Source: an uncultured Spirochaetaceae bacterium (lineage in GTDB: Bacteria; Spirochaetota; Spirochaetia; Treponematales; Treponemataceae). From it: a stretch of 64,000 nucleotides of DNA. Made by a program: the position numbers and the translations under genes. The notes below the pieces were generated by a model. It made no database searches, was not told the origin of the DNA, and saw nothing but the letters and a program-made list of their open reading frames with translations. Below, piece after piece: positions 29,549 to 64,000 of the stretch. The stretch is taken from assembly GCA_902789325.1 (NCBI GenBank), contig CADANN010000001.1, positions 38,024 through 102,023 of the forward strand. The letters run 5' to 3'. Within the stretch, counting starts at the first letter, position 1, and every line of letters begins with the position of its first letter.

Positions 29549-30097
29549 ATGTCAGAAAGAAATAATCCTATAAAAGTACTGAATGCTTTTTCCAGAAAAT
29601 TCGCAAAGATGAGTAATGATGATTTAGATGCTCAACCGGCACCAGTTTCGAAAGATAAAAAACTTCAGGATGAAATTAATAGCAGAGAAGAAGAACGAGA
29701 AACTTATTTACGCCGTCGATTTGAGGATTATGCAAATCCACGCACTCAAGATATTGAAGAGGATGAAGATAATCTGATAAAGGCTTATGAGTTCTTTTGC
29801 AAGCTTACAGAATTCTGTGAGAACGAAAAATCTGAAAATCAAAATACAAAACTACGCTCAATGGAACTTTCTTCTCCTCTTTGCCGAAAAGCTGATTACA
29901 CGCTTGGAGACGATATAGCATTTTTGAAACTCTGGTTTTTGCAAAAAAATCCGGACAGCAATTTTGTACCAGAATTTACCCGCGCAGACAATGGACAGTT
30001 TTATCTGAACTTTACTGCACGAGAACTCTGGAGCCCTACTTCACTTGAAAAAGAGATTTTGCGTACTTTGGAAAATTCCGAAGAGGAAAATGATTAA
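29549..30097 (+). CDS. acidic hypothetical protein
   Basis: 182-aa ORF with no motif recognised. Its 3' end overlaps the 3' end of purF by 4 nt. Confidence 0.45.
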   Translation: MSERNNPIKVLNAFSRKFAKMSNDDLDAQPAPVSKDKKLQDEINSREEERETYLRRRFEDYANPRTQDIEEDEDNLIKAYEFFCKLTEFCENEKSENQNTKLRSMELSSPLCRKADYTLGDDIAFLKLWFLQKNPDSNFVPEFTRADNGQFYLNFTARELWSPTSLEKEILRTLENSEEEND

Positions 30098-33072: not shown

Positions 33073-33199
33073 TTTTTTCCTCGCAAAAAACAAAAAGGCG
33101 CCGTAAGAAGAATCCGAAATTTTCAGACTCTTTTTACGGCGCCTTTGCCTTTAAACTAAATTGTTTCTATATTATCGCAAAATGACATATTGTTGTCAA
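33073..33199 (-). promoter_or_regulatory. gltD-purF leader: sigma70 promoter + GGCAAAGG-box terminator hairpin
   Basis: On the minus strand: TTGACA (33199-194), 17-nt spacer, GATAAT (33176-171), box AAGGCAAAGG, hairpin arms at 33146-33134 and 33106-33094, then TTGTTTTTT. A GAGG RBS and the ATG at 33072 follow. Confidence 0.7.
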
Positions 33200-33237: not shown

Positions 33238-35646
33238 CTATTTAGTTTCTGGTGTGTGCCACTTCCAGTTTACTACCTCTGGTAAATCTTCACCGAGTTC
33301 TGAGATGTGCTGCTTGTGAGCAACGAGAGTATCATTCATCTTCTGAACGAGGTGGCTAGATTTGTTTCCAAGCTGTGGCAAGTACTGCAATGCAGCCTTT
33401 ACGAGGTCGAAGCGGTCAATCTTGTTCTGTACGCGCATGTCGAACGGAGTTGTGATTGTACCTTCTTCGTGGTATCCATAAACGTGGAGGTTGCGGTTTT
33501 CACGAAGATATGTGAGCTCGTGTACCAGCTTTGGATATCCATGGAATGCGAAAATGATTGGCTTGTCCTTTGTGAACAAAGCATTGTATTCGCTTTCGCT
33601 GAGTCCGTGTGGATGCTGATGATCGCTCTGGAGTTTCATCAAGTCTACAACGTTTACAAAGCGGATCTTGAGTTCTGGAAGATTATCGCGAAGGATTGTT
33701 GTAGCAGCAAGTGCTTCAAGAGTTGGTGTATCACCACAACAAGCCATTACGAGATCTGGTTCCTGACCATCATCGTTAGAAGCCCAGTCCCAGATACCAA
33801 TACCCTGAGTACAGTGTTTAACTGCCTGATCCATTGTAAGCCACTGGCAGCTTGGGTGCTTAGAAGCAACAATTACGTTTACGTAGTTCTTGCTCTTAAT
33901 ACAGTGGTCGAATGTAGAAAGAAGACAGTTTGTATCAGGCGGCAAGTACATACGTACAACGTCAGCCTTTTTGTTAGAAATATGATCGAGGAATCCTGGA
34001 TCCTGGTGTGTGAATCCGTTGTGGTCCTGCTGCCATACGTTTGATGTAAGGATGAGGTTCAAAGATGCGATTGGTGCACGCCACTTGAGCTGTGAGCAAA
34101 CCTTGAGCCATTTTGCATGCTGAGAAGCCATTGAGTCGATGATACGAATGAATGCTTCGTAGCTTGCGAAGAATCCGTGACGACCTGTAAGGAGGTAACC
34201 TTCGAGCCAACCTTCACACATATGCTCAGAAAGGTATGAGTCCATGATACGTCCGTTGTGAGCGAGCTTATCATCTGTTGGAAGGATTTCTGCGTTGAAG
34301 TCGCGGTTTGTAGCTTCGAATGCAGCATAAAGTCTGTTAGACATAGACTCATCTGGTCCGAAGATACGGAAGTTCTTGTTGTCTTCGTTGAGCTTAAGAA
34401 CATCGCGGATATAGTTTCCGAGCTCTTTCATATCCTGTGCTTTTACGCTACCAGGAGTTTTAACTTCGAGAGCATATTTTTTGAAGTCAGGTGTGCGGAG
34501 GTCCTTAAGAAGGTTACCACCGTTTGCATGTGGGTTAGCAGAAATTCTGTGTTCACCCTTTGGAGCGATAGCCTGGATTTCAGCCTTGAGGCGGTAGTTC
34601 TCATCAAAGAGTTCTTCCGGCTTGTAAGACTTGAGCCATGCTTCGAGTTCCTTCATGTGTTTTGCTTCATTTGGATCTGGCTTTGTGAGGTCGATAGGAA
34701 CCTGGTGTGCACGGAATGAGTTTTCAATTGGAAGGCCGTCGTCGTTGAACTTTGGACCTGTCCATCCCTTTGGAGTGCGGAGAACGATCATAGGCCAGAA
34801 TGGGCGCTCTGTTTTTCCGTTTACACGAGCATCGCGCTGAATCTTCTGAATCTTTTCAATACACTTATCAACAGCAGCAGCCATTGCGTGGTGTACTTCC
34901 ATGTGGTCTGTATCTGGAGTTGCTTCAACAAAGATTGGATCCCAACCACAACCGTGGAAGAAGCTCTTTACTTCGTCCTTAGAAATACGTGCAAATATAG
35001 TTGGGTTAGAAATCTTATATCCGTTGAGGTGGAGGATTGGAAGAACTGCACCGTCTGTTACAGGATTAAGGAATTTGTTTGAGTGCCATGCTGTAGCCAA
35101 TGGACCAGTTTCTGCTTCACCATCACCTACGATACAAGTTGTAATGAGGTTAGGATTATCAAATACAGAACCGAATGCGTGAGCGATAGAATAACCAAGC
35201 TCACCACCTTCGTTGATAGAACCTGGAGTTTCTGGAGCAACGTGGCTTGAGATTCCGCCTGGGAATGAGAACTGCTTGCAAAGACGGCTCATACCTTCTT
35301 CATCAAGACTTACGTTTGGATAAACCTCTGAATAGTAACCTTCAAGATAAGAGTTAGCTACGAAGAAGTTTCCTCCATGTCCTGGACCTGAAATAAGAAT
35401 CATGTCGAGATTGTATTTTGTGATAGCTCGGTTCAAGTGAGTATACACAAAGTTCTGGCCTGGAACTGTACCCCAGTGACCAACGATTTTTGTTTTTACC
35501 TGATCGCGTGTTAAAGGCTTTCTCAAAAGAGGATTCTCTTTCATGTAAAGCTGGGCAGCTGCAAGATAGTTAGTTGCACGCCAGTACTGATCAAGTCGGT
35601 TGAAGTATTCTTCTGAATCTTCAATGCGTTTTGCCTTTTTTGACAT
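33238..35646 (-). CDS. xfp: xylulose-5-P/fructose-6-P phosphoketolase
   Basis: 802 aa. Typical N-terminus ([14 protein letters not shown]...HWGTxPG) and a ThDP motif region GDGEAETG. Confidence 0.95.
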
Positions 35647-35746
35647 ATAAAACTCCTGAGTAGGTTTACCCGTGGGCTTTCCTACAAAAAATTACGATAG
35701 GAGTTTACTGGTATGCAAGTTTTATTGCAATAGGATTTTAGGGCTT

Positions 35747-35798
35747 TAACGCAAATTTTACCCATTTTTATTTATAAAAGGGGGTAAAATTTGCGTTA
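35747..35798. promoter_or_regulatory. 17-bp perfect inverted repeat upstream of the xfp promoter
   Basis: TAACGCAAATTTTACCC (35747-63) and GGGTAAAATTTGCGTTA (35782-98) with an 18-nt spacer. On the minus strand the xfp promoter TTGCAA-17-TAAACT lies at 35730-35702. Confidence 0.55.
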
Positions 35799-35919
35799 TA
35801 AGGTATTTATATTTTGTTATAAATCAACTTTTTCCCCTTTTTGATTCTTTAAAAGGGGTGATTTTAATTTATAAGCCATTTTCGAACTCAAAATAAAGTT
35901 TCAAATGGCTTATAAAGCA

Positions 35920-38900: not shown

Positions 38901-40506
38901 CAACATAAACAGTAGTGTCAGTAACAACCTTCTCACGAAGACTATCAATAGGAGGGTTTGTAACCTGAGCAAAAAGCTGCTTGAAGTAAGAGAAAAGCGA
39001 CGGATGTTTTTCACTCATTACAGCAAGCGGAGTATCAACACCCATACTTGCAGTAGGTTCTACACCGTTACGAGCCATAGGCAGAATCATTTCATTTACA
39101 TCTTCATAATTCCAGCCGAAAGCACGGTACATGATATTTCTTTCATCCTGAGTAAATACAGGAATCTTTTTGTTTGGAATCTTCAGATCAGCAAGGTGAA
39201 TAAGATTCATATCAAGCCATTCACCATAAGGATAAAGTGAAGCATATTCTTTTTTACATTCTTCATCAGAAATGATTTTTTTCTGAACAGTATCTACAAG
39301 AAGGATTCTTCCCGGCTGCAAACGTGATTTAATTTTTATATTTTCTTCTGGAATATCAAGAACACCAACTTCACTGCTCAAAATAAGCATATTGTCTTTT
39401 GTGATGTAATAGCGGCTTGGACGAAGACCATTACGATCAAGAGTTGCACCAAGCAAATCACCATCACTAAACAGAATTGCAGCAGGACCATCCCAGCTTT
39501 CCATCATAGTTGCCCAGTAATGATAAAAATCTTTTTTATTCTGAGGCATATTATCATCGTGTTTCCAAGGTTCAGGAATACACATCATTACAGCAAGAGG
39601 AAGAGGAACGCCGTTCATAACCAGGAACTCGAGAGTATTATCGAGCATTGCAGAGTCAGAACCAGTAGTATCTACTGCAGGAAGGATTTTCTGCATCTGA
39701 GTTTTATCAAGTTTGGTAGAACTAACAGTTTCTTCTCGAGCAAGCATACGGTCAACGTTTCCACGGATTGTATTGATTTCTCCGTTATGCGCAATAAAGC
39801 GGTTTGGATGAGCACGCTGCCAGCTAGGCTGAGTATTTGTAGAAAAGCGGGAATGAACAAGAGCAAGAGCCGATTCATAATCAGCAGACTGTAAATCGCT
39901 GTAAAAAGTGCGGAGCTCATGAACAAGGAACATACCTTTGTAAACAATTGTACGGCTGCTCAAAGAACAAACATATGTTTTATGTTCGCTGTCCTGTTTT
40001 TCAAACTCGCGTCTGGCAATATAAAGTCTGCGGTCGAAATCAATTCCCTTCTCACATTCAGAAGGACGCGCAATAAAGGCCTGCCAGATATTAGGCATAC
40101 AGTCACGCGCCTTTTTACCAAGCACTTCAGCATTTACAGGAACTTTACGCCAGCCAAGGAACTTCAATCCTTCTGCAGAACAGCATTTTTCAAAACGAGC
40201 TTTTTCAGAAGCACAAACAGTATCGTCTCCAGGAAAGAAAAACTGACCAATACCGTAATCGCGTTCACCAAGCGAACCAATCAAATCCTGCACAGCCTGC
40301 TTATAAAACTTGTGACAAATCTGAACAAGAATACCTACACCATCTCCAGTTTCACCGCTGGCATCTTTACCTGCACGGTGTTCAAGTTTTTCAACGATAC
40401 TCAAGGCATTATCAACAATTTTGTGCGTTTTAGAACCGTCAATATTTACTACCGCACCAATACCGCAAGCATCATGTTCAAATGCTGGTTCATACAATGT
40501 TTTCAT
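35920..40506 (-). CDS. gltB: glutamate synthase large subunit
   Basis: 1528 aa. N-terminal Ntn Cys (FEHDACGIG), FMN/3Fe-4S central domains and a C-terminal GXGXG beta-helix domain. Confidence 0.97.
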   Translation of the reverse strand: MKTLYEPAFEHDACGIGAVVNIDGSKTHKIVDNALSIVEKLEHRAGKDASGETGDGVGILVQICHKFYKQAVQDLIGSLGERDYGIGQFFFPGDDTVCASEKARFEKCCSAEGLKFLGWRKVPVNAEVLGKKARDCMPNIWQAFIARPSECEKGIDFDRRLYIARREFEKQDSEHKTYVCSLSSRTIVYKGMFLVHELRTFYSDLQSADYESALALVHSRFSTNTQPSWQRAHPNRFIAHNGEINTIRGNVDRMLAREETVSSTKLDKTQMQKILPAVDTTGSDSAMLDNTLEFLVMNGVPLPLAVMMCIPEPWKHDDNMPQNKKDFYHYWATMMESWDGPAAILFSDGDLLGATLDRNGLRPSRYYITKDNMLILSSEVGVLDIPEENIKIKSRLQPGRILLVDTVQKKIISDEECKKEYASLYPYGEWLDMNLIHLADLKIPNKKIPVFTQDERNIMYRAFGWNYEDVNEMILPMARNGVEPTASMGVDTPLAVMSEKHPSLFSYFKQLFAQVTNPPIDSLREKVVTDTTVYVGKDGNLLQPEAKNCRVLEINNPILTGTDLMKISTLNQPGLKTKTISILFDLNKDSHAELVSASTNETPKQVRGDSLLKTALEKLFAQIDAAYVDGYNIIILSDRGVDETHAAIPAILATSAVEQYLIRTKKRTAISIILETAEVRDVHQAAMCLGYGARAINPYLAHEAIAELIDQKILDKDYHTAIDDYNKAIINGIVKIAAKMGISTIQSYQSAQIFEAVGIAGDVVEKYFTNTVSRVGGVGLKEIEEDVRYHHDQGFDPAGLTVNQHLDSFGKHKFRRGPQAESHLYNPETIVALQQATRNGDYTRFKEYTALVDDNSHPHTLRAMLDFDFEKAGEGISIDEVESVDEIVKRFKTGAMSYGSISEEAHKCMAAAMNAIHGKSNSGEGGEKPERLGTEYNSAIKQVASGRFGVTEEYLLSAREIQIKMAQGAKPGEGGHLPGKKVYPWIAKTRYATPGVALISPPPHHDIYSIEDLAQLIYDLKNANRAARISVKLVSEAGVGTIAAGVAKAGAQVILISGHDGGTGAAPISSIHHAGLPWELGLAETHQTLIQNGLRGRVVIETDGKLMSGRDVVIAALLGAEEFGFATAPLIAMGCSMMRVCQLDTCPFGVATQNEKLRAKFPGKPEYVINFMKFIAQEMREIMAKLGVRTVEELCGRTDLLKLKDKQGFKRAGLVDMSRVLANAEAGGDWKADRSLFDFELEKRIDLTKLVPDFENKKTGDLIDIQSTDRTVGTILGSEIQKKFGNTLSDDTYCVNFKGGAGQSFGAFIPKGLTLRLTGDANDAFGKGLSGGKLVIKKPAEFEGKADGNIIVGNVALFGATSGTAFINGVAGERFCVRNSGATVVAEGCGDHGLEYMTGGTAVILGGTGKNLCAGMSGGVAYVLDENHDLYKRMNHELVKMYALDDETTTLSGTTDENHLYALIEQHAKETGSERAKAILADWDNMKTKFKKIIPNDYLRIMKEIVEQEKTIANHEDAVLAAFRKCTA
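38680..38738. repeat. 59-nt double-hairpin repeat element inside gltB (copy A, complete)
   Basis: GTCA-CCCCGAA-CTTGT-TTCGGGG-TCTCATTTGTAG-ATGCTGAA-ACAAG-TTCAGCAT-GAC. It is translated in frame as SHAELVSASTNETPKQVRGD. Confidence 0.8.
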
Positions 40507-40713
40507 CTAACGTTCCTTATCATCCACCATAAAAAAAAGCCGCGGACACAATTACGCACCAAACGTAAAAGTTACCGCGGCCTCTTTGCCGGCTTAGAGA
40601 TTTTCACAAAACAAAAAAGGCCGTAGACACAATCTCATACCCATATGAAATTATATCTACGACCTCTTTGCCGTAATTTAAGTAATACTACAAAAATGCA
40701 GTGTTACTGTCAA
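40507..40713 (-). promoter_or_regulatory. gltB leader: sigma70 promoter + two tandem GGCAAAGAGG-box terminator hairpins
   Basis: On the minus strand: TTGACA (40713-708), 17-nt spacer, TAGTAT (40690-685).
- Hairpin 1: box ACGGCAAAGAGG (40674-663), arms 40664-56 and 40627-19, then T6.
- Hairpin 2: box CCGGCAAAGAGG (40592-581), arms 40581-75 and 40545-39, then T8.
The flanking gene is divergent, so these hairpins cannot terminate an upstream gene. Confidence 0.75.
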
Positions 40714-40781: not shown

Positions 40782-41333
40782 ATGACAAAACAGGATTACA
40801 TAAAATTATTCAGCCAGATAAAACCCGGATTTTTTGAAAGAGACTATGTCAAAAACAGAGAAGACGAAGATATTTTCGATGAAATGATTCTTTGCCTTAA
40901 AGATTTTGATCCGGCAAAATATGTAAAACAATTTGGTTCTGAAGTTAGTTTTGACTATTTCAAAGGCGATATAAATGAACTCAAAGCACAGATTAAAAAA
41001 GTGGATGAATCATGGCCTCAATGGTTCAATGAAAACCAGACACTTTTCTGCGGCTACATTGACGGTAAAGTTGCCTGCTTTTGTATGATAGAAGATTTTG
41101 GCACTTACGAAATTGATGGTAAGCAGGCTCGAGTTGGAGGTCCAGGCTGTGTTGGAACCGTACCAGAATTCCGCAATAAAGGATTAGGCCTCACAATGGT
41201 AAACAAGGCCACCCAGATTGCAAAAGAACTCGGCTACGATTACAGCTATATCCATTACACAGGCGTACCTGGCTGGTATGCTAAGCTCGGCTATGAGACA
41301 ATTTTCAGATGGAATAAGCACGGAATTCTTTAG
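40782..41333 (+). CDS. GNAT-family N-acetyltransferase
   Basis: Acetyl-CoA motif A: VGTVPEFRNKGLGLTMV. Confidence 0.8.
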   Translation: MTKQDYIKLFSQIKPGFFERDYVKNREDEDIFDEMILCLKDFDPAKYVKQFGSEVSFDYFKGDINELKAQIKKVDESWPQWFNENQTLFCGYIDGKVACFCMIEDFGTYEIDGKQARVGGPGCVGTVPEFRNKGLGLTMVNKATQIAKELGYDYSYIHYTGVPGWYAKLGYETIFRWNKHGIL

Positions 41334-41356: not shown

Positions 41357-42910
41357 TTATCCATTCAATATTTTTGCTGCCTCGTTTTCCCCATTTGATG
41401 TTGAATAAAAATAAGGTGTTTCAGCATCAAATTCGCCGGCACAGGTATCAACCATTTTGAAGGATATCGGAGGATACAACATTCCGCTGTTACTTTTTTC
41501 AGCCTTTGTAATATTTTCCAGCTTGCACAGGAACCACTCGTCAATTTTTGTAATTTCGTGAATCTGTTCAACTGAATAAAGTCCGCGTTTAAGGGCCTGA
41601 TAAATTGCAAATATTCTCTGATCGGTGCACTGTCCTACCCGTTCGCGTATTTTCTCATCACCTTCTTTTTCAAAGGCAGGAAGATTCAAATCTTTTACAC
41701 CAACTTCAAGTCCTCGGGCAGCCTTAAGAATTGCTTCTTCAAAGTTCTGGCCAATTGCCATAACTTCACCAGTTGCCTTCATCTGTGTACCAAGCTTACG
41801 TGCAGCATAAACAAATTTATCGAACGGGAACTTTGGCATTTTTACAACTACATAGTCGAGAACAGGTTCAAAGCAGGCTTTTGTCTTCTTTGTTACAAAG
41901 TTTGGAATTTCATCCAGAGTAAAGCCAACTGCTATGAGGGCTGCAACCTTTGCGATTGGATAGCCGGTTGCTTTTGAAGCGAGCGCTGAAGAACGCGAAA
42001 CACGAGGGTTTACCTCAATTACCGCATATTCAAAGCTGTCTGGATTAAGTGCAAACTGACAGTTACAGCCACCTTCAATTTCGAGGGCGCTGATGATATT
42101 GAGTGCGGCACTTCGCAGCATCTGATATTCTTTATCTGCAAGAGTCACAGTTGGTGCAATTACGATTGAGTCACCAGTATGAACACCAACAGGATCAAAG
42201 TTTTCCATAGAACAGACAGTAATTACGTTAGCATTGCTGTCCCGCATTACTTCAAACTCAACTTCTTTCCATCCGCTGATACATTTTTCTACAAGTATCT
42301 GATGAATTGGCGAACGATGAAGTCCGTTATGAGCAATTTCGTCCAGTTCGCGGTCGTTATTTACAATACCACCACCTGTTCCACCAAGGGTAAAGGCCGG
42401 ACGGATAATTGCAGGAAAGCCGATTTCGTTATGAACAAAATCAGCAGCATCTTCGTAAGTAGTTACAACTTTTGAAGGAATACAAGGCTCTCCTATTGCT
42501 TCCATTGTATCTTTGAACATCTGGCGGTCTTCTGCCTTGTCGATTGTTTCAGGGCGTGCACCAAGCAGCTGAACATTATGGCTCGCAAGAAAGCCGGATT
42601 TTGCAAGCTCCATACTGAGGGTCAATCCCGTCTGACCGCCAAGTGTTGAAAGCAGGCTGTCTGGTTTTTCTTTTTCGATGATTCTTTCAAGAGTTCGCAG
42701 AGTAAGCGGTTCCATGTAAATCTCATCTGCCATTTCGTGGTCAGTCATTAAAGTTGCCGGATTTGAGTTTACAAGACAAACTTCAAGTCCAAGAGATTTC
42801 AGAGCCTTACATGCCTGATTTCCGGCATAGTCAAATTCCGCTGCCTGTCCAATTACAATCGGACCGGAACCAATAATCATTACTTTGTGAATATTTTTAT
42901 TGAGAGGCAC
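41357..42910 (-). CDS. carB: carbamoyl-phosphate synthase large subunit, N-terminal half only
   Basis: 517 aa. It begins [25 protein letters not shown] and ends at ...[20 protein letters not shown], the junction between the two homologous CarB halves. A stop follows, and then a convergent GNAT gene. Confidence 0.9.
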
Positions 42911-44042: not shown

Positions 44043-44172
44043 TTTGACTCCTATGTCAGGCCTCTATGGCCAAAAAAAAAAGACGCTCATTCCATTTGAA
44101 GACAATAAGTCTATAAATCGAATGAACGTCTTTGTTCTTTAATGTTATACAGTGTTTACAAATTGTGGTCAA
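44043..44172 (-). promoter_or_regulatory. carAB leader: sigma70 promoter + A-tract/terminator hairpin
   Basis: On the minus strand: TTGACC (44172-167), 17-nt spacer, TATAAC (44149-144). Then AGAACAAAGACGTTCATTC...GAATGAGCGTCTTT (arms 44133-120 and 44092-079) plus T10, followed by an AGGAG RBS. Confidence 0.65.
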
Positions 44173-44270: not shown

Positions 44271-45128
44271 ATGATATTCACAAAAATGCAGGGGTGTGGT
44301 AACGATTATGTTTATGTTGACTGCACCAACGGACTGCAAATAAAGGATGAAGCACTTGCTGCTCAAAAAGTTTCGGACCGTCATTTTGGAATTGGCAGCG
44401 ATGGATTAATTTTAATTAAAAAGGGCCATCTTGCAGATTTTGAAATGGTTATGTACAACGCAGATGGAAGCCGCAGTCAGATGTGCGGAAACGGCATTCG
44501 CTGTGTTGCAAAATATGTATATGATAAAAAATTAACTAACGGTCGTGAGTTCACAATTGAATCTATGGGCGCTGTAAAACACATCACAATTACAAGTGGT
44601 GAACCAGGAGATAAAGTCTGCTATGCACGCGTAGATATGGGAAAACCAATTTTGCAGGCAGAAAAGATTCCAGTTCTAACCACAGGTTCGAAAGTAATTA
44701 TGCATCCACTTAATGTTGCTGGCACAGAATATAAAATCACCTGTGTTTCTATGGGAAACCCTCACGCAGTTGTTTTCCTCGACAAAAAGCCTGCTGAATT
44801 CGACGTTTGCGGCATCGGGCCTTCTTTTGAACACAACGAGTTCTTCCCAGAACGAACAAATACCGAATTTGCTTACGTTGCAGACCGTCGTACAATTTTT
44901 ATGCGAGTCTGGGAACGTGGAACCGGTGAAACTTTAGCCTGCGGAACCGGAACTTGTGCAACTGTAGTTGCCGCAATTCTAAACGGCCTTGTAGATGCAG
45001 GAGAAAAAATCACAGTACATCTGCTTGGTGGAGATCTGGAAATTGAATGGAGCGGCAATGAGGCCGACAGTGTATTCATGACCGGCCCTGCCACCACAGT
45101 ATTCGAAGGAGAAATTGAAGGAGTATAA
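44271..45128 (+). CDS. dapF: diaminopimelate epimerase
   Basis: N-terminal FTKMQGCGNDYVYVD and the two catalytic Cys motifs (MCGNG and ACGTG). Confidence 0.95.
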   Translation: MIFTKMQGCGNDYVYVDCTNGLQIKDEALAAQKVSDRHFGIGSDGLILIKKGHLADFEMVMYNADGSRSQMCGNGIRCVAKYVYDKKLTNGREFTIESMGAVKHITITSGEPGDKVCYARVDMGKPILQAEKIPVLTTGSKVIMHPLNVAGTEYKITCVSMGNPHAVVFLDKKPAEFDVCGIGPSFEHNEFFPERTNTEFAYVADRRTIFMRVWERGTGETLACGTGTCATVVAAILNGLVDAGEKITVHLLGGDLEIEWSGNEADSVFMTGPATTVFEGEIEGV

Positions 45129-46334: not shown

Positions 46335-46552
46335 TTGACAAAAATATTTAGAAATTGTATAAAACAAATAACAAACGACAATGAGGTCGCAGAACAGGGG
46401 TTTCTGCGACCTTTTTTGTTTTAAAATCATTCCGACTGCCGTTGGCATGTTCGGAGAAACTAACAATCGGCAAAGGCGCTGCGTTTTCATTTTGATGTAC
46501 ACAGAATGAAAGTGCGGCGTTTTTTTTGTCGGTTATATATAAGGATAATAAA
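46335..46552 (+). promoter_or_regulatory. type III GS leader: sigma70 promoter + two tandem box/terminator hairpins
   Basis: TTGACA (46335-40), 17-nt spacer, TATAAA (46358-63).
- Hairpin 1: ACGACAATGAGG box, arms GGTCGCAGAA (46385-94) and TTCTGCGACC (46402-11), then T6.
- Hairpin 2: TCGGCAAAGG box (46468-76), arms 46477-91 and 46505-19, then T8.
RBS AAGGA, ATG at 46553. Confidence 0.75.
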
Positions 46553-50679: not shown

Positions 50680-50931
50680 TTGACAACTTTTTTTAATTTC
50701 GGTATAAAGAAAAACATCTAAGGCAAAGAGGTCGTAGGAATAATCCTTCGACCTCTTTTCTTTTTTAACAAACATGGCAATGGCGCTGCGTATACTACGT
50801 TTCTAACTAACGTTAGTTATCCGCAGCGTTTATTTTTTACGGCGATGATGTCGGGCATTTGTGCACAATGTCTGAAATTGTCGCCGTTATTTTTTTAATG
50901 TGATTTTCGAACTTACACAGGAGGTATACAG
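50680..50931 (+). promoter_or_regulatory. amtB leader: sigma70 promoter + three tandem terminator hairpins
   Basis: TTGACA (50680-85), 17-nt spacer, TATAAA (50703-08).
- Hairpin 1: AAGGCAAAGAGGTCG, arms 50725-34 and 50749-58, then T-run.
- Hairpin 2: ATGGCAATGGCGCTGCG (50774-90) pairing with CGCAGCG (50822-28), then TTTATTTTTT.
- Hairpin 3: ACGGCGA (50839-45) pairing with TCGCCGT (50881-87), then TATTTTTTT.
RBS AGGAGG, ATG at 50932. Confidence 0.75.
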
Positions 50932-52602
50932 ATGAGTGAAGTTTGGAGTGTATGGTTTTTAATCGGCGCTGCACTTGTATTCTTTATGCAGTGCGGTTTT
51001 GCAATGGTTGAAACAGGTTTTACAAGAGCGAAGAATGCGGGAAACATCATTATGAAAAACCTGATGGATTTCTGTATCGGAACTCCTATGTTTATGCTTC
51101 TCGGCTTTGGTTTAATGATGAGCGAGAACTATTTCTTTGGTGTAATTGGTAAACCAAATATGCAGTTGTTTACAAACTTTGCTGAAGGCGACTGGTCAGC
51201 ATTCGTTTTCAATCTTGTATTCTGTGCAACAGCTGCTACAATCGTATCTGGTTCTATGGCAGAACGAACTAAGTTCTCTGCTTACTGTATCTACTCTGCT
51301 GTAATTTCTGCAGTTGTTTACCCTATCGAAGCTGGTTGGGTTTGGAACTCACAGGGCTGGCTCGTTCAGCTTGGTTTCGTAGACTTCGCTGGTGGTGCTG
51401 CAATTCACTCAGTAGGAGGGACCGCTGCATTGATTGGTGCAATCTTCCTTGGTCCTCGTATTGGAAAGTATGATTACGATAAGGACGGAAAGGTAACAAA
51501 GGTACACGCTATTCCTGGTCACTCTTTGACACTCGGTGCTCTCGGAACTTTCATCCTCTGGTTCGGATGGTACGGCTTCAACGGAGCTGCTTGTACACAG
51601 CTTCTTGGAGTTGGAGGTCTTGCTGCAGTATTCACAACAACAACAATTGCCCCTGCAGTTGCTGCTGTTACTACAATGATTTTTACCTGGGTAAAGAACG
51701 GTAAGCCTGATGTTTCTATGACACTCAACGCTTCACTTGCTGGTCTTGTTGCTATTACTCCTACATGTGCCACAGTTGATGCACTTGGTGCAAGCATCAT
51801 CGGTATCGTTTCAGGTATTATCGTTGTAGTAGTTGTTGAATTCCTTGATATGAAGCTCCACATTGATGACCCGGTTGGTGCTGTTGCAGTTCACCTTGCA
51901 AACGGTATCTGGGGTACATTAAGTGATGGTTTATTCAACGTTGAAAACGGTGTATTCTACGGTGGCGGTGTAAAGCACCTTGGAGTACAGTGTCTTGGTG
52001 AGTTCACAATTGTTGCATGGACAACAGTTTGTATGATTATCACATTCAGCCTTATCAAGAAACTCCATGGACTTCGTGCAAGCCGTGAAGAAGAAATCAT
52101 CGGTCTTGATAAGCTCGAGCACGGAATTGATTCAAGCTACGCAGGATTCATCATGGCTCCACAGGTTCTTGGCGGAGACAGCCCTGCATCAGGAGAAAGC
52201 GTTCCTGTTGAAAAGGCAGTTCCAGTTGCAAAGGCAACAGCTCGTCCAGATGCAAAGTTCCATATGGTTACAATCATTACACGCCAGAGCAAGTTCGACG
52301 AGCTCAAGGCTGCAATGAACGACATCAACGTAACAGGTATGACAGTTACAAACGTACTTGGTTGCGGCCAGCAGCACGGAAACGTTCAGAAGTATCGTGG
52401 TGTTGAAATGGATATGACATTGCTTCCTAAGATTAAGGTTGATATCGTAGTAAGCGAAGTTCCAGTTGATCTTGTTGTAACAGCCGCTAAGGAAGTTCTT
52501 TACACAGGCCACATCGGCGACGGAAAGATTTTCGTATACGATGTTCAGAATGTTGTAAAGGTTCGTACCGGAGAGGAAGGATACGAAGCTTTGCAGGATT
52601 AG
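50932..52602 (+). CDS. amtB: ammonium transporter fused to a C-terminal PII (GlnK/GlnB) domain
   Basis: Residues 1 to ~400 are an Amt/MEP polytopic domain (AGGAAIHSVGG, WFGWYGFN). A Pro/Ala/Ser linker follows. The last ~115 aa are PII-like (FHMVTIITR...T-loop GQQHGNVQKYRG...GDGKIFVYDV). Confidence 0.9.
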   Translation: MSEVWSVWFLIGAALVFFMQCGFAMVETGFTRAKNAGNIIMKNLMDFCIGTPMFMLLGFGLMMSENYFFGVIGKPNMQLFTNFAEGDWSAFVFNLVFCATAATIVSGSMAERTKFSAYCIYSAVISAVVYPIEAGWVWNSQGWLVQLGFVDFAGGAAIHSVGGTAALIGAIFLGPRIGKYDYDKDGKVTKVHAIPGHSLTLGALGTFILWFGWYGFNGAACTQLLGVGGLAAVFTTTTIAPAVAAVTTMIFTWVKNGKPDVSMTLNASLAGLVAITPTCATVDALGASIIGIVSGIIVVVVVEFLDMKLHIDDPVGAVAVHLANGIWGTLSDGLFNVENGVFYGGGVKHLGVQCLGEFTIVAWTTVCMIITFSLIKKLHGLRASREEEIIGLDKLEHGIDSSYAGFIMAPQVLGGDSPASGESVPVEKAVPVAKATARPDAKFHMVTIITRQSKFDELKAAMNDINVTGMTVTNVLGCGQQHGNVQKYRGVEMDMTLLPKIKVDIVVSEVPVDLVVTAAKEVLYTGHIGDGKIFVYDVQNVVKVRTGEEGYEALQD

Positions 52603-56527: not shown

Positions 56528-56572
56528 GTCATTCCGAACTTGTTTCGGAATCTAAATCAAGTTCAGCATGAC
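56528..56572. repeat. double-hairpin repeat element, copy C (second hairpin half-deleted)
   Basis: GTC-ATTCCGAA-CTTGT-TTCGGAAT-CTAAATC-AAGTTCAGCATGAC. It overlaps the last 3 codons and the stop of the minus-strand gene. Confidence 0.75.
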
Positions 56573-57876
56573 TCAACCACACGGATTGCAAAAGTGTCAT
56601 CGGCAATGCAAACTTCGCCGCGTGCAACAATTTTGCCTGAGCGGATAATCTGTGCAAACTCTCCGGCCCTCTGTTTCAAAATAACATAAGAGCCCTGATG
56701 CAGGCCTGCAACTTCTTCTTTTGAAAGGTAAGCGCTTCCAAGCTGAATCGAAATATAATCTTTTTCATCGTAGATGATTTCATTCAACTGAGGATTTTCA
56801 GCAATTCTCATTCCAAAAAGTTCATCAATTGCAACAGTTTTACCAGTGTGAATTACACGGTTCTCATAAACAAGATTTAGTCCTTCATTTTCCTTTTTAT
56901 CCAGAATTAAAATCAAGCCCGGTTCAAGAGAAACATTTTCCGGACGGAATCTTCCAAGTTCAATAAAAACATTGTCCGGCTGCTGATGACTTTTTATATT
57001 TGAAAGATTCTGAAATCTTATTTTTCCACCAACAGTTCCTGCATTTCCGCCGTCACCAAAAAAGCCGCCCATAACCATTTCTTCAAGAAGAGTGTCACTA
57101 AACTGAAGATTTATCCAGCCTTCCTGACCGGCAACATTTCCCTTAAGAGCAAGCAGCAGCATCATGCAATTGTCTTCCTGCCGAGTCGTATTGGAATTTC
57201 CTGCAGCCACAGCTTTTCCCAGCTCAAACTTTTCGTCAGAAACCTTCCCGTCTGTGCGCCGACAGATTTCTTCCTTAAGCATTCCTGTTACAGTTTTTAC
57301 AAAATAATTCTTAAAAACATCAATATCAAATTCAGTAATGGCCTCGTATTTCGTGCAATCCTGTTTGAGCAGTGCCTTTGCAATCAGAGCATCTGCTTCA
57401 ATAGTAAAACCTGCATTCGAATAATCAAAATCATAGAAAAAACATTTCTGCGGAATCGAATGTAAAAACTCGGAATTAATCATCTGATCCACAAGTGACA
57501 CAGAAAAATCACAGCGCTCATTCATCATGGCAGTAAATTCATGATTTATAAGACGGCAGATATCCTCGCCCAGAATCCAAAGCTCCCGCTGCATATAACG
57601 CGGATAACGGTCTGGCTGGCGGAAGTTATACTCCTTAATTTTCTTTCCGCTCACATCCTGACTCACAGGCAATTCGCCGTTCATAATCGACTCAACTTCA
57701 ACTCCAAATACTTCGGCAAGTTTAGGAAGTACTGTCACATCCGGGCAACCTTCACCACGCTCCCACTTTGAAACAGCTTTGTCGGTTACATTACATTGTT
57801 CTGCAAGTTCCTTTTGAGTAAGTCCCTTTCGATTTCGTAATTCATAAATCAAAAATCCAGTTTTTTCTGCATTCAT
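56563..57876 (-). CDS. XRE-type HTH fused to FliM-like middle domain and FliN/SpoA-like C-terminal domain
   Basis: - HTH: LRNRKGLTQKELAEQCNVTDKAVSKWERGE.
- FliM-like segment: IKEYNFRQPDRYPRYMQRELWILGEDICRLINHEFTAMM...
- FliN-like end: GSYVILKQRAGEFAQIIRSGKIVARGEVCIADDTFAIRVVE.
The start follows an AAGGAG RBS. Confidence 0.75.
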   Translation of the reverse strand: MNAEKTGFLIYELRNRKGLTQKELAEQCNVTDKAVSKWERGEGCPDVTVLPKLAEVFGVEVESIMNGELPVSQDVSGKKIKEYNFRQPDRYPRYMQRELWILGEDICRLINHEFTAMMNERCDFSVSLVDQMINSEFLHSIPQKCFFYDFDYSNAGFTIEADALIAKALLKQDCTKYEAITEFDIDVFKNYFVKTVTGMLKEEICRRTDGKVSDEKFELGKAVAAGNSNTTRQEDNCMMLLLALKGNVAGQEGWINLQFSDTLLEEMVMGGFFGDGGNAGTVGGKIRFQNLSNIKSHQQPDNVFIELGRFRPENVSLEPGLILILDKKENEGLNLVYENRVIHTGKTVAIDELFGMRIAENPQLNEIIYDEKDYISIQLGSAYLSKEEVAGLHQGSYVILKQRAGEFAQIIRSGKIVARGEVCIADDTFAIRVVESC

Positions 57877-57962
57877 AATAATTCTCCTTAGCAGTTTCCC
57901 GCTTACATTCAAAATCGTAACACGGAAGCTGCAGTCTGTAACCCGACGTGTAGTTTAACAGA

Positions 57963-58172: not shown

Positions 58173-58456
58173 TTGCAAATCAACGTTTAAAACGATAATA
58201 TAGTAGAAACGACAAAGAGGTCGTAGATAAAATCCTTGAAAACAACAGGGGTTCTGTCTACGACCTCTTTTTTTTATTTGTGAAAAGGAGGAAAAGGACC
58301 GTCCAAAATCAATTTGGAAGATTCTAAAAAGTTGCTCCACGTATTCGCAACTTTTTTTAACGAATCTTCGATAGACCGCATGAACATTTTCGGGTTGAAA
58401 CCTAAAATTGCTTCACAGCGGTTCAGCAATTTTTTTACGGTTTCTTCGATAAGAGT
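58173..58456 (+). promoter_or_regulatory. asnB-carB'-pyrG-glnA leader: sigma70 promoter + three tandem terminator hairpins
   Basis: TTGCAA (58173-78), 17-nt spacer, TAATAT (58196-201).
- Hairpin 1: ACGACAAAGAGGTCGTAGA, arms 58214-27 and 58257-70, then T8.
- Hairpin 2: AAAAAGTTGC (58326-35) and GCAACTTTTT (58347-56).
- Hairpin 3: AAAATTGCT (58404-12) and AGCAATTTT (58425-33), then TTT.
ATG at 58457. The upstream gene is divergent. Confidence 0.75.
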
Positions 58457-60247
58457 ATGTGTGGTTTTGTAGGATGCTTTGATTTGAACTCAGGTAGCGC
58501 GCCTATTGCAGAAGGCTTGAAAGAAGAACTTCGTGCGCAGGTTCTGGAGATGTCTAAGAAAATTCGTCACCGTGGTCCAGACTGGAGCGGTGTTTATACC
58601 GGTAATAATGCTATTTTAAGCCATGAACGTCTTTCAATCGTAGACCCACTTTCAGGAAAACAGCCTTTGGTCAGCGATGATGAAAAAATCATTCTTGCCG
58701 CAAACGGTGAAATCTACAATCACAAGGAAATCCGAGCAAAGTTTGATGGTTCATATAAGTTCAGAACTGGAAGTGACTGCGAAGTTATTATTCCTCTTTA
58801 TAAAAAATACCGCAAATCTGGCGATTTCACAAAGATGATTGAAGAGCTTTCGGGTATCTTCGCATTCGCACTTTATGACAGCGAACACGACACATATCTG
58901 ATTGCCCGCGACGAAATCGGTGTTATTCCACTATATCAGGGCTGGGACAAAGCAGGCCGCTATTATGTTGCAAGCGAACTCAAAGCTCTCGAAGGCGACT
59001 GCCAGACAATTGAAGAATTCCCTAATGGAAGTTATTTATACAGCGGCCGTCATGCTGAACTTGTTTCAGCATCAACTGATGAGACCCCGAAACCAATCCG
59101 CTGGTATCACCGCAACTGGGAATCATATGAAAGCGTAAAATCAGCCCCAAAAGCAACCGACGAAAAAGGCGAAGTAATCAACCCAAGCGTAATCGAAAAA
59201 GTACGTAACGGACTCGAAACTGCAGTAAAAGCCCAGTTGATGTCAGACGTTCCTTACGGCGTACTTCTTTCCGGCGGTCTCGACTCATCAATCATCGCAG
59301 CAATCACACAAAAATACAGCAAAAAACGTATTGAAACAGACAGCAAGGAAGCAGCCTGGTGGCCACAGCTCCACTCATTCGCAGTTGGACTTGAAGGTTC
59401 TCCAGACCTTATCGCTGCTCAAAAGGCCGCAGACTATATCGGAACCGTTCACCATGAAGTACACTTTACAATTCAGGAAGCACTCGATGCTCTCCCTGAT
59501 GTAATTTACCACATCGAAACTTACGACATCACAACAGTTCGTGCCTCTACCCCTATGTATCTGCTTGCGCGTGTAATCAAATCTATGGGAATCAAGATGG
59601 TTCTTTCGGGCGAAGGAAGTGACGAGCTCTTTGGTGGTTACCTTTACTTCCACAAGGCTCCAAATGCACAGGAGTTCCATGAAGAACTTGTACGTAAAAT
59701 GAGTAAACTTCATCTTTACGACTGTCTCCGTGCAAACAAATCTCTTATGGCATGGGGTGTTGAAGGCCGCGTTCCATTCCTTGATAAAGACTTTATCGAC
59801 ATCGCAATGGGCCTCAACCCAAGTGATAAAATGAACATCAAATTACCAGATGGTAAACAGAGAATGGAAAAATGGATTCTCCGTAAAGCCTTTGAAGATC
59901 TTCTTCCAGAAAGCATTGCATGGCGCCAGAAGGAACAGTTCTCAGATGGTGTAGGCTATAACTGGATTGATACCCTCAAAAAGATGACAGAAGAAAAGGT
60001 AAGCGACGCAGAATTTGCACGCCGCGAAAACCGCTTCCCTGTAAATCCTCCAAAAACAAAAGAGGAATATTACTACCGCGAAATCTACAGCCGCCTCTTC
60101 CCAAGCGACAGTGCAGCACGTTGTGTTCCACACGAAGCCGGAGTTGCATGTTCAACAGCAAAAGCCCTCGAATGGGATGCAGCATGGAAGACTATGGATG
60201 AACCGAGCGGACGCGCAATTGCAGGAGTTCACGATAATGCCTACTAA
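58457..60247 (+). CDS. asnB: asparagine synthase (glutamine-hydrolysing)
   Basis: N-terminal MCGFVG (Ntn Cys) and PP-loop SDVPYGVLLSGGLDSS. 596 aa. Confidence 0.96.
   Translation: MCGFVGCFDLNSGSAPIAEGLKEELRAQVLEMSKKIRHRGPDWSGVYTGNNAILSHERLSIVDPLSGKQPLVSDDEKIILAANGEIYNHKEIRAKFDGSYKFRTGSDCEVIIPLYKKYRKSGDFTKMIEELSGIFAFALYDSEHDTYLIARDEIGVIPLYQGWDKAGRYYVASELKALEGDCQTIEEFPNGSYLYSGRHAELVSASTDETPKPIRWYHRNWESYESVKSAPKATDEKGEVINPSVIEKVRNGLETAVKAQLMSDVPYGVLLSGGLDSSIIAAITQKYSKKRIETDSKEAAWWPQLHSFAVGLEGSPDLIAAQKAADYIGTVHHEVHFTIQEALDALPDVIYHIETYDITTVRASTPMYLLARVIKSMGIKMVLSGEGSDELFGGYLYFHKAPNAQEFHEELVRKMSKLHLYDCLRANKSLMAWGVEGRVPFLDKDFIDIAMGLNPSDKMNIKLPDGKQRMEKWILRKAFEDLLPESIAWRQKEQFSDGVGYNWIDTLKKMTEEKVSDAEFARRENRFPVNPPKTKEEYYYREIYSRLFPSDSAARCVPHEAGVACSTAKALEWDAAWKTMDEPSGRAIAGVHDNAY
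59049..59093. repeat. double-hairpin repeat element inside asnB (copy B, 3'-truncated)
   Basis: GTC-ATGCTGAA-CTTGT-TTCAGCAT-CAACTGATGAG-ACCCCGAA-AC. It is translated in frame as RHAELVSASTDETPK. Confidence 0.8.
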
Positions 60248-61826
60248 TGATTCTGCAAAATCAAAAGGAACAATCGTAGTTCTTGGTTCAGGCCCAATCC
60301 GAATCGGTCAGGGAATTGAGTTCGACTACGCGAGCGTTCAGTGTGTACGCGCCCTCAAAAAACTTGGGTATGAAGTTGCAATCATCAACAACAACCCGGA
60401 AACTGTAAGTACCGACTTTGATACTGCAGACCGTCTTTATTTTGAACCACTCACTCCACCAGATGTTATGAACGTAATCAACGATGAAAAACCTCTTGGT
60501 GTAGTAGTTGCATTTGGCGGTGGAACAGCAATTAAACTTGCAAAATATCTGGACAGTCAGGGAGTACGTATTCTCGGAACTTCTGCAGATGCAATCGACC
60601 TTGCCGAAGACCGTGAACGTTTTGAAGAACTCTGCGACCGCCTCAACATTAAGCGCCCTCGCGGACTTACAGTGTTTACAGAAGTAGAAGCCCTCGAATC
60701 TGCTGCAAAAATCACCTACCCTGTTCTCATGCGACCAAGCTACGTACTTGGCGGTCAGAACATGATTGTTGCCCGCAACAATGCAGATGTAAAAGAATAC
60801 ATGAAAATCATTCTGCGTCAGGGAATTGAAAATCCGGTTCTTATCGACAAATATATGGAAGGAACTGAGCTCGAAGTAGACTGTATCTGCGACGGCGAAA
60901 ATGTTTTGATTCCTGGAATTATGGAACACGTTGAGCGCACTGGTATTCACTCAGGTGACTCAATTGCAGTTTATCCAGGTCAGTTCACTCCAGAAATTGA
61001 AGAAAAAATCGTTCGTCAGTCTACAGACCTTGCACTTGCACTTGGAACAAAAGGTCTTGTAAATATTCAGTATCTTATTTACGACAATGATCTTTATATT
61101 ATCGAAGCAAATCCACGTTCAAGCCGTACCGTTCCTTACCTTAGTAAGGTTTCTGGTGTACCAATGATTGACCTTGCAACCCGCGCCATGCTCGGAGAAA
61201 AAGTTCGTGAACTTGGTTATGGAACAGGTCTTTACCGTAAACCAGATTATTGTGCCGTAAAAGTTCCAGTATTCAGTTTTGAAAAACTGATGGATGTGGA
61301 TACACATCTTGGCCCGGAAATGAAATCAACTGGTGAAGTTCTTGGCATTGCCCCTACCCGCGAAGAAGCACTCTTTAAAGGAATGGTTGCTGCAGGATGG
61401 AAGATGATTAAAGAAGGCGGCATTCTGTTCTCAGTTCGTGAATCTGACCTTCCGGAACTTCCAGCCCTTGCAAAAAAGTTTTATGATCTTGGCTTTACTC
61501 TTTATGCAACAAGCGGAAATGCCTCAACAATTGAACGCAGTGGTATGCCCGTAACCCACGTTGCAAAAGTTCACGAAAATTACAATGACAATGTAATGAC
61601 TCTTCTGGAAAGCGGAAAAGTTGTTTACGTAGTTTCTACATCTGCAAAAGGACGCGATCCTGTAGCCGAAAGCGTAAAGCTTCGCCGTCTTGCTGTAGAA
61701 CGAGATATTGATTGTCTTACAGCCTTGGACACTGCTAACGCACTCGCAGACTGTCTTGCAAGTCCATACACATTAGATAACGTAAGCGTAGTTGATATCA
61801 ATCACGATTTAAGAATTCATAACTAA
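60237..61826 (+). CDS. carB: carbamoyl-phosphate synthase large subunit, C-terminal half (second ATP-grasp + MGS-like allosteric domain)
   Basis: It starts MPTNDSAKSKGTIVVLGSGPIRIGQGIEFDYASVQ, matching the second CarB repeat, and ends with an MGS-like domain (ILFSVRESD...LYATSGNA). The ATG at 60237 overlaps the asnB stop by 11 nt. The upstream part of the ORF-track ORF overlaps asnB and is discounted. Confidence 0.9.
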   Translation: MPTNDSAKSKGTIVVLGSGPIRIGQGIEFDYASVQCVRALKKLGYEVAIINNNPETVSTDFDTADRLYFEPLTPPDVMNVINDEKPLGVVVAFGGGTAIKLAKYLDSQGVRILGTSADAIDLAEDRERFEELCDRLNIKRPRGLTVFTEVEALESAAKITYPVLMRPSYVLGGQNMIVARNNADVKEYMKIILRQGIENPVLIDKYMEGTELEVDCICDGENVLIPGIMEHVERTGIHSGDSIAVYPGQFTPEIEEKIVRQSTDLALALGTKGLVNIQYLIYDNDLYIIEANPRSSRTVPYLSKVSGVPMIDLATRAMLGEKVRELGYGTGLYRKPDYCAVKVPVFSFEKLMDVDTHLGPEMKSTGEVLGIAPTREEALFKGMVAAGWKMIKEGGILFSVRESDLPELPALAKKFYDLGFTLYATSGNASTIERSGMPVTHVAKVHENYNDNVMTLLESGKVVYVVSTSAKGRDPVAESVKLRRLAVERDIDCLTALDTANALADCLASPYTLDNVSVVDINHDLRIHN

Positions 61827-63464: not shown

Positions 63465-64000
63465 ATGTACACAAAAGAAGAAGTATTAGATTTTATTCAG
63501 GAAGAAGACGTTAAGTTCATTCGTCTTGCATTTTTTGACCTTACAGGAAAACAGAAAAATATTTCTATAATGCCAAGCGAACTGGAACGTGCCTTCGAAC
63601 ATGGAATTCCATTTGATGCTTCTGCTATCGAAGGTTTTGAAGGTCCTCAAAAATCTGAGTTATACCTCTTACCAGATCCTTCTACCCTCGCAATCATTCC
63701 ATGGCGCCCTGCAACAGGAAAGGTTGTTAGAATGTTCTGTAATATTCTAACCCCTGATGGAACTCCATATTCAAAAGACAGCCGTACAATTTTGCAGAAT
63801 GCCTGCCGCAAGCTCAAAGAAGAATGTGGTATTGAAATGATGGTTGGAACTGAAGTTGAATTCTATCTCTTTAAGTTAGATGAAAAAGGAGAACCAACCA
63901 CTGAAACTTTTGATAAAGCAGGCTATATGGATATTGCCCCGGAAGACCACGGAGAAAATATCCGCCGAGAAATCTGTTTTACTCTTGAACAGATGGGAAT
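63465..64000 (+). CDS. glnA: glutamine synthetase type I (5' part; runs off window end)
   Basis: Absent from the ORF track because there is no stop in the window. I translated it by hand: MYTKEEVLDFIQEEDVKFIRLAFFDLTGKQKNISI...GTEVEFYLF, the GSI beta-grasp and first catalytic motifs. A GAGGTG RBS lies 5 nt upstream. Confidence 0.88.
   Translation, partial: MYTKEEVLDFIQEEDVKFIRLAFFDLTGKQKNISIMPSELERAFEHGIPFDASAIEGFEGPQKSELYLLPDPSTLAIIPWRPATGKVVRMFCNILTPDGTPYSKDSRTILQNACRKLKEECGIEMMVGTEVEFYLFKLDEKGEPTTETFDKAGYMDIAPEDHGENIRREICFTLEQMG

Follow-up and report, generated by a model that had tools for sequence, protein, structure and literature searches.

Serially repeated hexaloop hairpin-terminator units ahead of nitrogen-assimilation genes in a Treponemataceae genome: probable attenuators of the ANTAR/NitR kind

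A window of 64,000 nucleotides (the whole stretch analysed) from contig CADANN010000001.1 of an uncultured Spirochaetaceae bacterium was found to contain nine to ten copies of a compact box-terminator unit. All copies were on the sense strand, and all were located in leaders of nitrogen genes, with at least six leaders represented. These units are probably protein-dependent, nitrogen-responsive transcription attenuators of an ANTAR/NitR-like type. The proposed mechanism is a familiar one, ANTAR/NitR antitermination of nitrogen genes; new are the host lineage and the single-hairpin, serially repeated architecture. A sequence-only reading of the gltB leader had described two tandem box-terminators. 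Beyond that reading, the box is a hexaloop hairpin which competes with the terminator, fits the ANTAR consensus, and is the hallmark of a regulon with six or more leaders.

Identification of units in the window

Units were searched for with a pattern scanner for C-[AG]ANGNN-G on a stem of 3 bp or more that leads into a hairpin and a T-run; the scanner thus required [AG] at loop position 1, A2, G4, and the closing C and G. Eight units were detected in the window, and none in shuffles of the window and of 37 loci (L001-L037). One or two further units were added by a relaxed scanner and inspection by eye. A covariance model trained on 15 units of the gltB and asnB types matched nine units in the window on the expected strand, with E-values from 5e-17 to 0.05. 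The features are compiled in Table 1. The unit ahead of asnB heads the gene string asnB-carB'-pyrG-glnA(-ANTAR).

The 11-mer CGGCAAAGAGG, present in both gltB units ahead of the terminator, occurs in four exact copies in the 64 kb, compared to 0.78 expected even if one mismatch is allowed. The exact copies at 29876 (minus strand) and 43080 (plus strand) were located in coding DNA without hairpin or terminator and were rejected as chance matches. The one-mismatch copies at 45053 and 56048 were coding as well.

Table 1. Positions of leader elements and of gltB in the window, with structural details
Feature	Position	Strand	Details
gltB promoter-like site, predicted	40685..40713	-	sigma-70-like TTGACA-17-TAGTAT; equivalent promoter kept in L001-L004
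gltB units, closing C	40670, 40588	-	
gltB unit 1 mini-hairpin (putative antiterminator)	40657..40676	-	TTACGGC / AAAGAG / GTCGTAG; dG -6.4 kcal/mol; covariation
gltB unit 1 hexaloop	40669-40664	-	closing pair C 40670 / G 40663
gltB unit 1 intrinsic terminator	40608..40669	-	core stem 40665-40618; U-tract 40617-40608; dG -33.7 kcal/mol
gltB unit 2 mini-hairpin (putative antiterminator)	40578..40591	-	CGGC / AAAGAG / GCCG; loop 40587-40582
gltB unit 2 intrinsic terminator	40531..40587	-	core stem GCCGCGG/CCGCGGC 40581-40539; U8 40538-40531; dG -31.2 kcal/mol
gltB, glutamate synthase large subunit, 1528 aa	35920..40506	-	ATG 40506; RBS AAGGAA 40518-40513
glnN (GS type III) leader, two tandem units	46373..46527	+	closing C 46379 (loop AATGAG), 46471 (loop AAAGGC)
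glnN promoter, predicted	TTGACA 46335 / TATAAA 46358	+	
amtB-PII leader, two clear units	50718..50896	+	closing C 50724 (loop AAAGAG), 50778 (loop AATGGC)
amtB-PII possible degenerate third unit	closing C 50843	+	loop GATGAT; by eye only; no covariance-model match
asnB leader unit	58207..58275	+	closing C 58213; ACGAC / AAAGAG / GTCGT, terminator, U8; 75.5 bits
carA leader unit	44072..44140	-	closing C 44134; GAAC / AAAGAC / GTTC, terminator, U10
gltD-like / purF-like operon leader unit	33087..33153	-	closing C 33147; loop AAAGGC; 47.3 bits

Structure of the gltB leader

The gltB product contained the Pfam domains GATase_2, Glu_syn_central, Glu_synthase, and GXGXG, and the GltB homology scan, with a best match at 97% amino-acid identity, placed the organism among rumen or gut Treponema. 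The predicted -10 element ends 8 nt ahead of the mini-hairpin of unit 1. On the minus strand, unit 1 (40674-40612) reads ACGGCAAAGAGGTCGTAGA...TCTACGGCC followed by TTTTTT; it is made up of ACGGCAAAGAGG, a 22-bp hairpin with a 4-nt loop, and TTTTTTGTTTT. Unit 2 (40592-40531, minus strand) reads CCGGCAAAGAGGCCGCGG...CCGCGGC followed by T8, and consists of CCGGCAAAGAGG, a hairpin interrupted by two small internal loops, and the T8 run. The units were matched by the covariance model with 79.9 bits (unit 1) and 38.6 bits (unit 2, E = 5e-7). The leader of 186 nt had a folding energy of -75 kcal/mol, well below that of dinucleotide shuffles (z = -8.8).

The sequence-only reading had placed two terminators between the gltB promoter and the ribosome-binding site, and both were recovered as hairpin plus U-tract between the site at 40713-40685 and the start codon at 40506. 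As reported there, the GNAT gene at 40782 is divergent from gltB. The proposal of a selected RNA element rather than a random hairpin is borne out by the leader fold, by the scanner result (eight units versus none in shuffles), and by the covariation described below. Other details had to be revised. What had been taken as a 28-nt loop in unit 1 is paired throughout and extends the stem, which gives the 22-bp hairpin with its 4-nt loop. Conservation had been claimed for the box and for the 3' side of the loop; the 5' box is conserved across units and is taken as the functional part, but AATTGTGTC is not conserved in the orthologous leaders L002-L004. This latter sequence is common to both gltB units only in the present species and in L001, and represents merely the 3' strand of the stem. 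As a candidate second box it was rejected, with three copies in the window versus 0.9 expected and no retention in orthologues. The description of the two units as clearly paralogous was too strong: outside the box, unit 1 compares with unit 2 at z = 3.0 and with the asnB unit at z = 5.2. Since unit 1 is nearer to the asnB unit, the shared box is better explained by a common need for protein binding than by local duplication.

A possible leader peptide, encoded by a 16-codon ORF within the unit-1 hairpin, was rejected, its ATG being missing from L001.

Downstream of gltB, two hairpins were observed at 35738-35870, CCCCTTTT...AAAAGGGG and CGCAAATTTTACCC...GGGTAAAATTTGCG. Since they look like 3' terminator(s) of gltB, the gene appears to be monocistronic. 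A phosphoketolase (XFP) gene (33238-35646, minus strand) is located between gltB and the gltD-like gene. The latter has its own unit and promoter in the window; in L082-L084, gltD-like and purF-like genes follow directly after gltB.

Competition between the box hairpin and the terminator

The box is not a linear motif but the apical part of a mini-hairpin, in which a C-G pair closes a hexaloop (AAAGAG in the gltB units). Across units the hexaloop follows the pattern A-A-N-G-R-N on a stem of 4-7 bp, the mini-hairpin being made of the first ~20 nt. The 3' arm of the mini-hairpin (GTCGTAG in unit 1, GCCG in unit 2) also forms the 5' side of the terminator stem; only one of the two structures can therefore exist at a time. 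The units have the make-up of Rho-independent terminators, i.e., a G+C-containing hairpin with the U-tract immediately after it. In the terminator fold, the hexaloop bases (AAAGAG) pair with the U-tract. Free energies of the mini-hairpins were -3 to -6.4 kcal/mol, compared to -31 to -34 kcal/mol for the terminators. An arrangement of this kind, with a weak antiterminator that depends on a factor to hold it closed, is typical of protein-dependent antitermination.

Among 54 distinct units, G4 and A2 were present in all, and position 1 was A in 49 and G in five; position 6 was often C. The invariance of the closing C, A2, G4, and the closing G is partly given by construction, because the scanner required these bases. 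Independently of the scanner, gltB leaders which were retrieved by GltB homology alone carry the box.

Occurrence and covariation in other genomes

Leaders of gltB with one or two units were found in ~26 Treponema genomes, all retrieved solely by GltB protein homology; in the cultured relative Treponema ruminis RU1 (L024) there are two units. In two further Treponema genomes a unit precedes an asnB-gltB pair, and in Lachnospiraceae units are present ahead of gltB and amtB. An alignment of orthologous gltB upstream regions had been suggested in the sequence-only reading; in the leaders retrieved here, box and units recur across these Treponema genomes and the Lachnospiraceae. No units were found by the scanner in the GltB-homology loci from other phyla. 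The units in other Treponema contigs and in metagenome matches had the same nitrogen genes downstream. When metagenomes were scanned with the 14-mer CAAAGAGGTCGTAG, real units were present at only 5 of the 120 loci, all of them ahead of the same nitrogen genes; the remaining matches were mostly due to chance and came from unrelated metagenomes.

Covariation was analysed for the mini-hairpin pair of alignment columns 5 and 18, which had not been selected by the scanner. The pair was formed in 47 of the 54 distinct units by five types of base pairs (CG 23, AU 15, GC 4, UG 3, GU 2). The overall covariation score of the mini-hairpin arms was 0.61 versus 0.28 in shuffles, a value reached by none of 500 shuffles and compared to at most 0.22 in slid controls. 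Without any stem requirement, at least 3 bp were still formed in 21 of 23 hits for box plus terminator, so the ascertainment bias is small. The terminator had 24 consensus pairs, 14 of which showed compensatory changes across orthologues. Stem length (28-80 nt) and apical loop vary freely, and only ~8 nt are conserved. In 32 of 42 first units, a promoter predicted by consensus (TTGnnn-16/18-TAnnnT) ends a median of 8 nt ahead of the hairpin; the RNA would therefore begin with the hairpin.

The GltB N-terminus (39307-40506) was 64-67% identical to proteins of Lachnospiraceae and Erysipelotrichaceae (L030-L037), and at most 51% identical to those of all other phyla among the matches returned. 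The nearness of this region to Firmicutes, together with the RNA units of Lachnospiraceae, hints that the nitrogen cluster and its control may have been laterally transferred between Firmicutes and rumen Treponema.

The ANTAR protein and its gene context

The window ends within the 5' part of glnA (GS type I; 63466..64000, plus strand). A contig of the same species (L081) was found via the PyrG protein of the window, and showed 96.6-97.7% DNA identity over an overlap of 2.9 kb. Directly after glnA, and just beyond the window end, this contig carries a gene for a 189-aa ANTAR protein. The Pfam ANTAR domain was detected with 56 bits (cutoff 27.3). Both by sequence and by predicted fold, the best PDB matches were Rv1626, EutV (including the RNA-bound form), and AmiR. 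Close homologues with 81-93% identity are annotated as "ANTAR domain-containing protein [Treponema sp.]". In a structure model of moderate confidence (pLDDT 70), a receiver-like beta-alpha fold is seen in the N-terminal half; no receiver domain was found there by Pfam. No kinase gene adjoined the ANTAR gene in the contigs examined.

The order asnB-carB'-pyrG-glnA-ANTAR is kept in five further contigs (L082-L086), which have units ahead of carA, asnB, amtB, and gltB. In every Treponema contig examined, the ANTAR gene was embedded in the regulated cluster. Neither a home-made HMM nor Pfam, the latter run on 39 ORFs of the window, detected an ANTAR gene inside the window; the HMM also found none in the regions flanking gltB at 80 loci. 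The 189-aa protein is presumed to be the trans-acting factor of the units. Judged from spacing only, the asnB...glnA-ANTAR string appears to be co-transcribed; if so, the regulator would be autoregulated, since its gene ends a string headed by a unit.

In L081 (2392-3670), glnA is present as two ORFs of 191 and 232 aa, compared to a single gene of 395-403 aa in L082-L086. The split is probably a frameshift or an assembly error.

Comparison with known antitermination systems

ANTAR targets are defined as two hexaloop hairpins which are 2-25 nt apart (PMC3369931; PMC8164766). Part of the ANTAR recognition element is the 13-nt sequence AGCAANGRRGCUY, which in the eut leaders reaches into the 5' part of the terminators. 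EutV and NasR require the closing pair as well as A1 and G4 in the hexaloop, and deletion of P1 or a change of the linker abolishes induction by EutV (PMC3369931). The unit core C-AANGRR-G corresponds to the GCAANGRRG part of the ANTAR P2 consensus AGCAANGRRGCUY; the flanking stem bases differ from it but pair.

With the targets of EutV (eut, Enterococcus), NasR (nasF), and AmiR (amiE) (Ramesh et al. 2012, PMC3369931), the units share the A1/G4 hexaloop, the C-G closing pair, and a hairpin whose 3' arm extends into the 5' half of an intrinsic terminator. An ANTAR gene within the regulated cluster, the theme of nitrogen metabolism, and multiple sites per genome are also common to these systems. 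In contrast to these targets, the units have one hairpin each, without P1 hairpin or linker. This hairpin is located ~8 nt past the predicted -10 element, at the 5' end of the RNA. Every hairpin has its own terminator, and two to three units stand in series. Further differences are the frequent C at loop position 6 and the spirochaete host. A candidate P1 hairpin 2-25 nt upstream was found in 1 of 48 units, compared to 1.9 expected from shuffled upstream sequence, and visual inspection of the terminator apex revealed no conserved A..G.. hexaloop. The units were therefore kept apart from canonical ANTAR-target RNAs, of which the P1 hairpin is a defining part. Most likely, they are a single-hairpin ANTAR variant with the same mode of action.

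The second relevant system is NitR of Clostridium saccharobutylicum, described here as summarised in later papers: an ANTAR protein which is encoded after glnA and by which GS and GOGAT are induced through antitermination under nitrogen limitation (Stutz et al. 2007, summarised in PMC6316151, PMC4676874). In the present organism the ANTAR gene is likewise immediately 3' of glnA, and leader terminators precede GS and GOGAT genes. Judged by these summaries, the two systems would also share control of GS and GOGAT genes after initiation, nitrogen limitation as the presumed signal, and a receiver-like N-terminus without an adjoining kinase gene; the likeness to NitR is drawn from gene order and regulated genes. 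The phylum is different, and, relative to the summarised NitR system, the regulon here additionally comprises glnN, amtB-PII, asnB, carA, and pyrG. For the Clostridium system, an antisense RNA has also been described.

A protein-stabilised 5' hairpin overlapping a terminator is also found in the RAT antiterminators of BglG/LicT. These antiterminators differ from the units in the sequence and structure of the RAT element, and they work with unrelated proteins of the CAT/PRD type. The Rfam model bglG-cis-reg scored 18.5 bits in the gltB leader, versus a threshold of 80.

Alternative explanations

The same mini-hairpin switch might be read by a factor other than an ANTAR protein, either a trans-acting sRNA or an RNA-binding protein, for which GS, CsrA, or a partner of PII would be candidates. 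Such a factor would be in line with the lack of the P1 hairpin which characterised ANTAR proteins need, and with the presence of an AmtB-fused PII and two glutamine synthetases within the same regulon; binding of the units by the ANTAR protein is a prediction. Nevertheless, loop and closing pair fit the core of the ANTAR P2 consensus, and all Treponema contigs examined have the ANTAR gene inside the regulated cluster. For CsrA in particular, the loops are not of the GGA type. A non-ANTAR factor is considered unlikely.

The units could also be ordinary constitutive or bidirectional terminators, or a repeated palindrome, with the box as an A-rich strand pairing with the U-tract. The pairing of AAAGAG with the U-tract in the terminator fold would agree with this, as would the scoring of the reverse strand by the covariance model. 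A partner of a U-tract, however, needs neither an invariant G4 nor a C-G closing pair nor a covarying 5' arm. All units are on the sense strand, just 3' of predicted promoters and just 5' of nitrogen genes, and two constitutive terminators of -31 to -34 kcal/mol would silence gltB. There is also nothing to be terminated in the gltB leader, since the neighbouring GNAT gene is divergent. This explanation is very unlikely.

Metabolite-sensing riboswitches (e.g., for glutamine, glutamate, or 2-oxoglutarate) with an aptamer including box and hairpin would also be expected as leader terminators upstream of nitrogen genes, and some occur in tandem, but with ~8 conserved nucleotides and a freely varying stem and apical loop there is no room for a ligand pocket, and no Rfam family reached its threshold, so that this idea is hardly tenable. 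In a search with the families of Rfam 15 at gathering threshold (including the glutamine riboswitch, T-box, and bglG-cis-reg), no unit was matched, and two tRNAs were the only hits in the window. When the search of the gltB leader was extended to E 10, only sub-threshold terminator look-alikes were obtained, the best being trpB (30 bits versus 59).

Proposed mechanism

For the ANTAR/NitR-like attenuators, the following course of events is proposed. By default, as judged from folding, the nascent leader would form the very stable hairpin with its U-tract, and RNA polymerase would halt before gltB. In the alternative state, to which structure and covariation point, the weak mini-hairpin (4-7 bp) would take the 5' base of the terminator. 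Under nitrogen limitation, the ANTAR protein might bind the hexaloop as the hairpin emerges and clamp the mini-hairpin. The clamped mini-hairpin would then block the terminator base beside the U-tract, and the polymerase would read through. Induction when nitrogen is limiting is inferred as the direction of control by analogy to NitR. Two units in series, and perhaps three at amtB, would multiply the termination probabilities, which should result in low basal expression and a steeper response. The switch precedes gltB, glnN, amtB-PII, carA, the gltD-like gene, and the asnB...glnA-ANTAR string, which make up the regulon.

A wider proposal is put forward more tentatively. A glnA-linked ANTAR subfamily with a degenerate receiver may read a single 5'-terminal hexaloop hairpin in place of the dual-hairpin motif, with cooperativity obtained through two to three stacked attenuators. 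It may control essentially the whole ammonium-assimilation network of rumen/gut Treponema after initiation (GS I, GS III, GOGAT, AmtB-PII, AsnB, CarAB, PyrG, and itself), as a module that would be shared with Lachnospiraceae, possibly by lateral transfer.

Implications

The analysis provides a concrete, testable model of nitrogen-assimilation control in rumen/gut Treponema; no description of such nitrogen regulation in these organisms was found in the searchable literature. It also provides a compact motif that is likely to escape existing ANTAR search models, which demand two hairpins with a linker of 2-25 nt. If one hairpin suffices, the accepted recognition rule that a "dimer binds two adjacent hairpins" would have to be qualified, and ANTAR regulons in Clostridia and spirochaetes may be under-counted. 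With a 21-nt hairpin and a 189-aa protein, the system is small and suited to biochemistry.

Further features of the window

The asnB leader continues for ~190 nt beyond its box-terminator (58276-58456, plus strand). Two more elements of hairpin plus T7 without box were observed there, GTTGC-N11-GCAAC at ~58333-58361 and ATTGCT-N12-AGCAAT at ~58409-58438; they could be a second, different attenuator.

AmtB and P-II are fused in a single protein of 556 aa (50932-52602, plus strand). The large subunit of carbamoyl-phosphate synthase is split into two separate genes (41357-42910, minus strand, and 60111-61826, plus strand), with the N-terminal half after carA and the C-terminal half (MGS domain) between asnB and pyrG. 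The same split was observed in L082 and L084, in the order carA-carB_N-asnB-carB_C-pyrG-glnA-ANTAR. At 56563-57912 (minus strand), a protein of 449 aa combines an N-terminal HTH_3 domain with the C-ring domains FliM and FliN, which is an unusual fusion.
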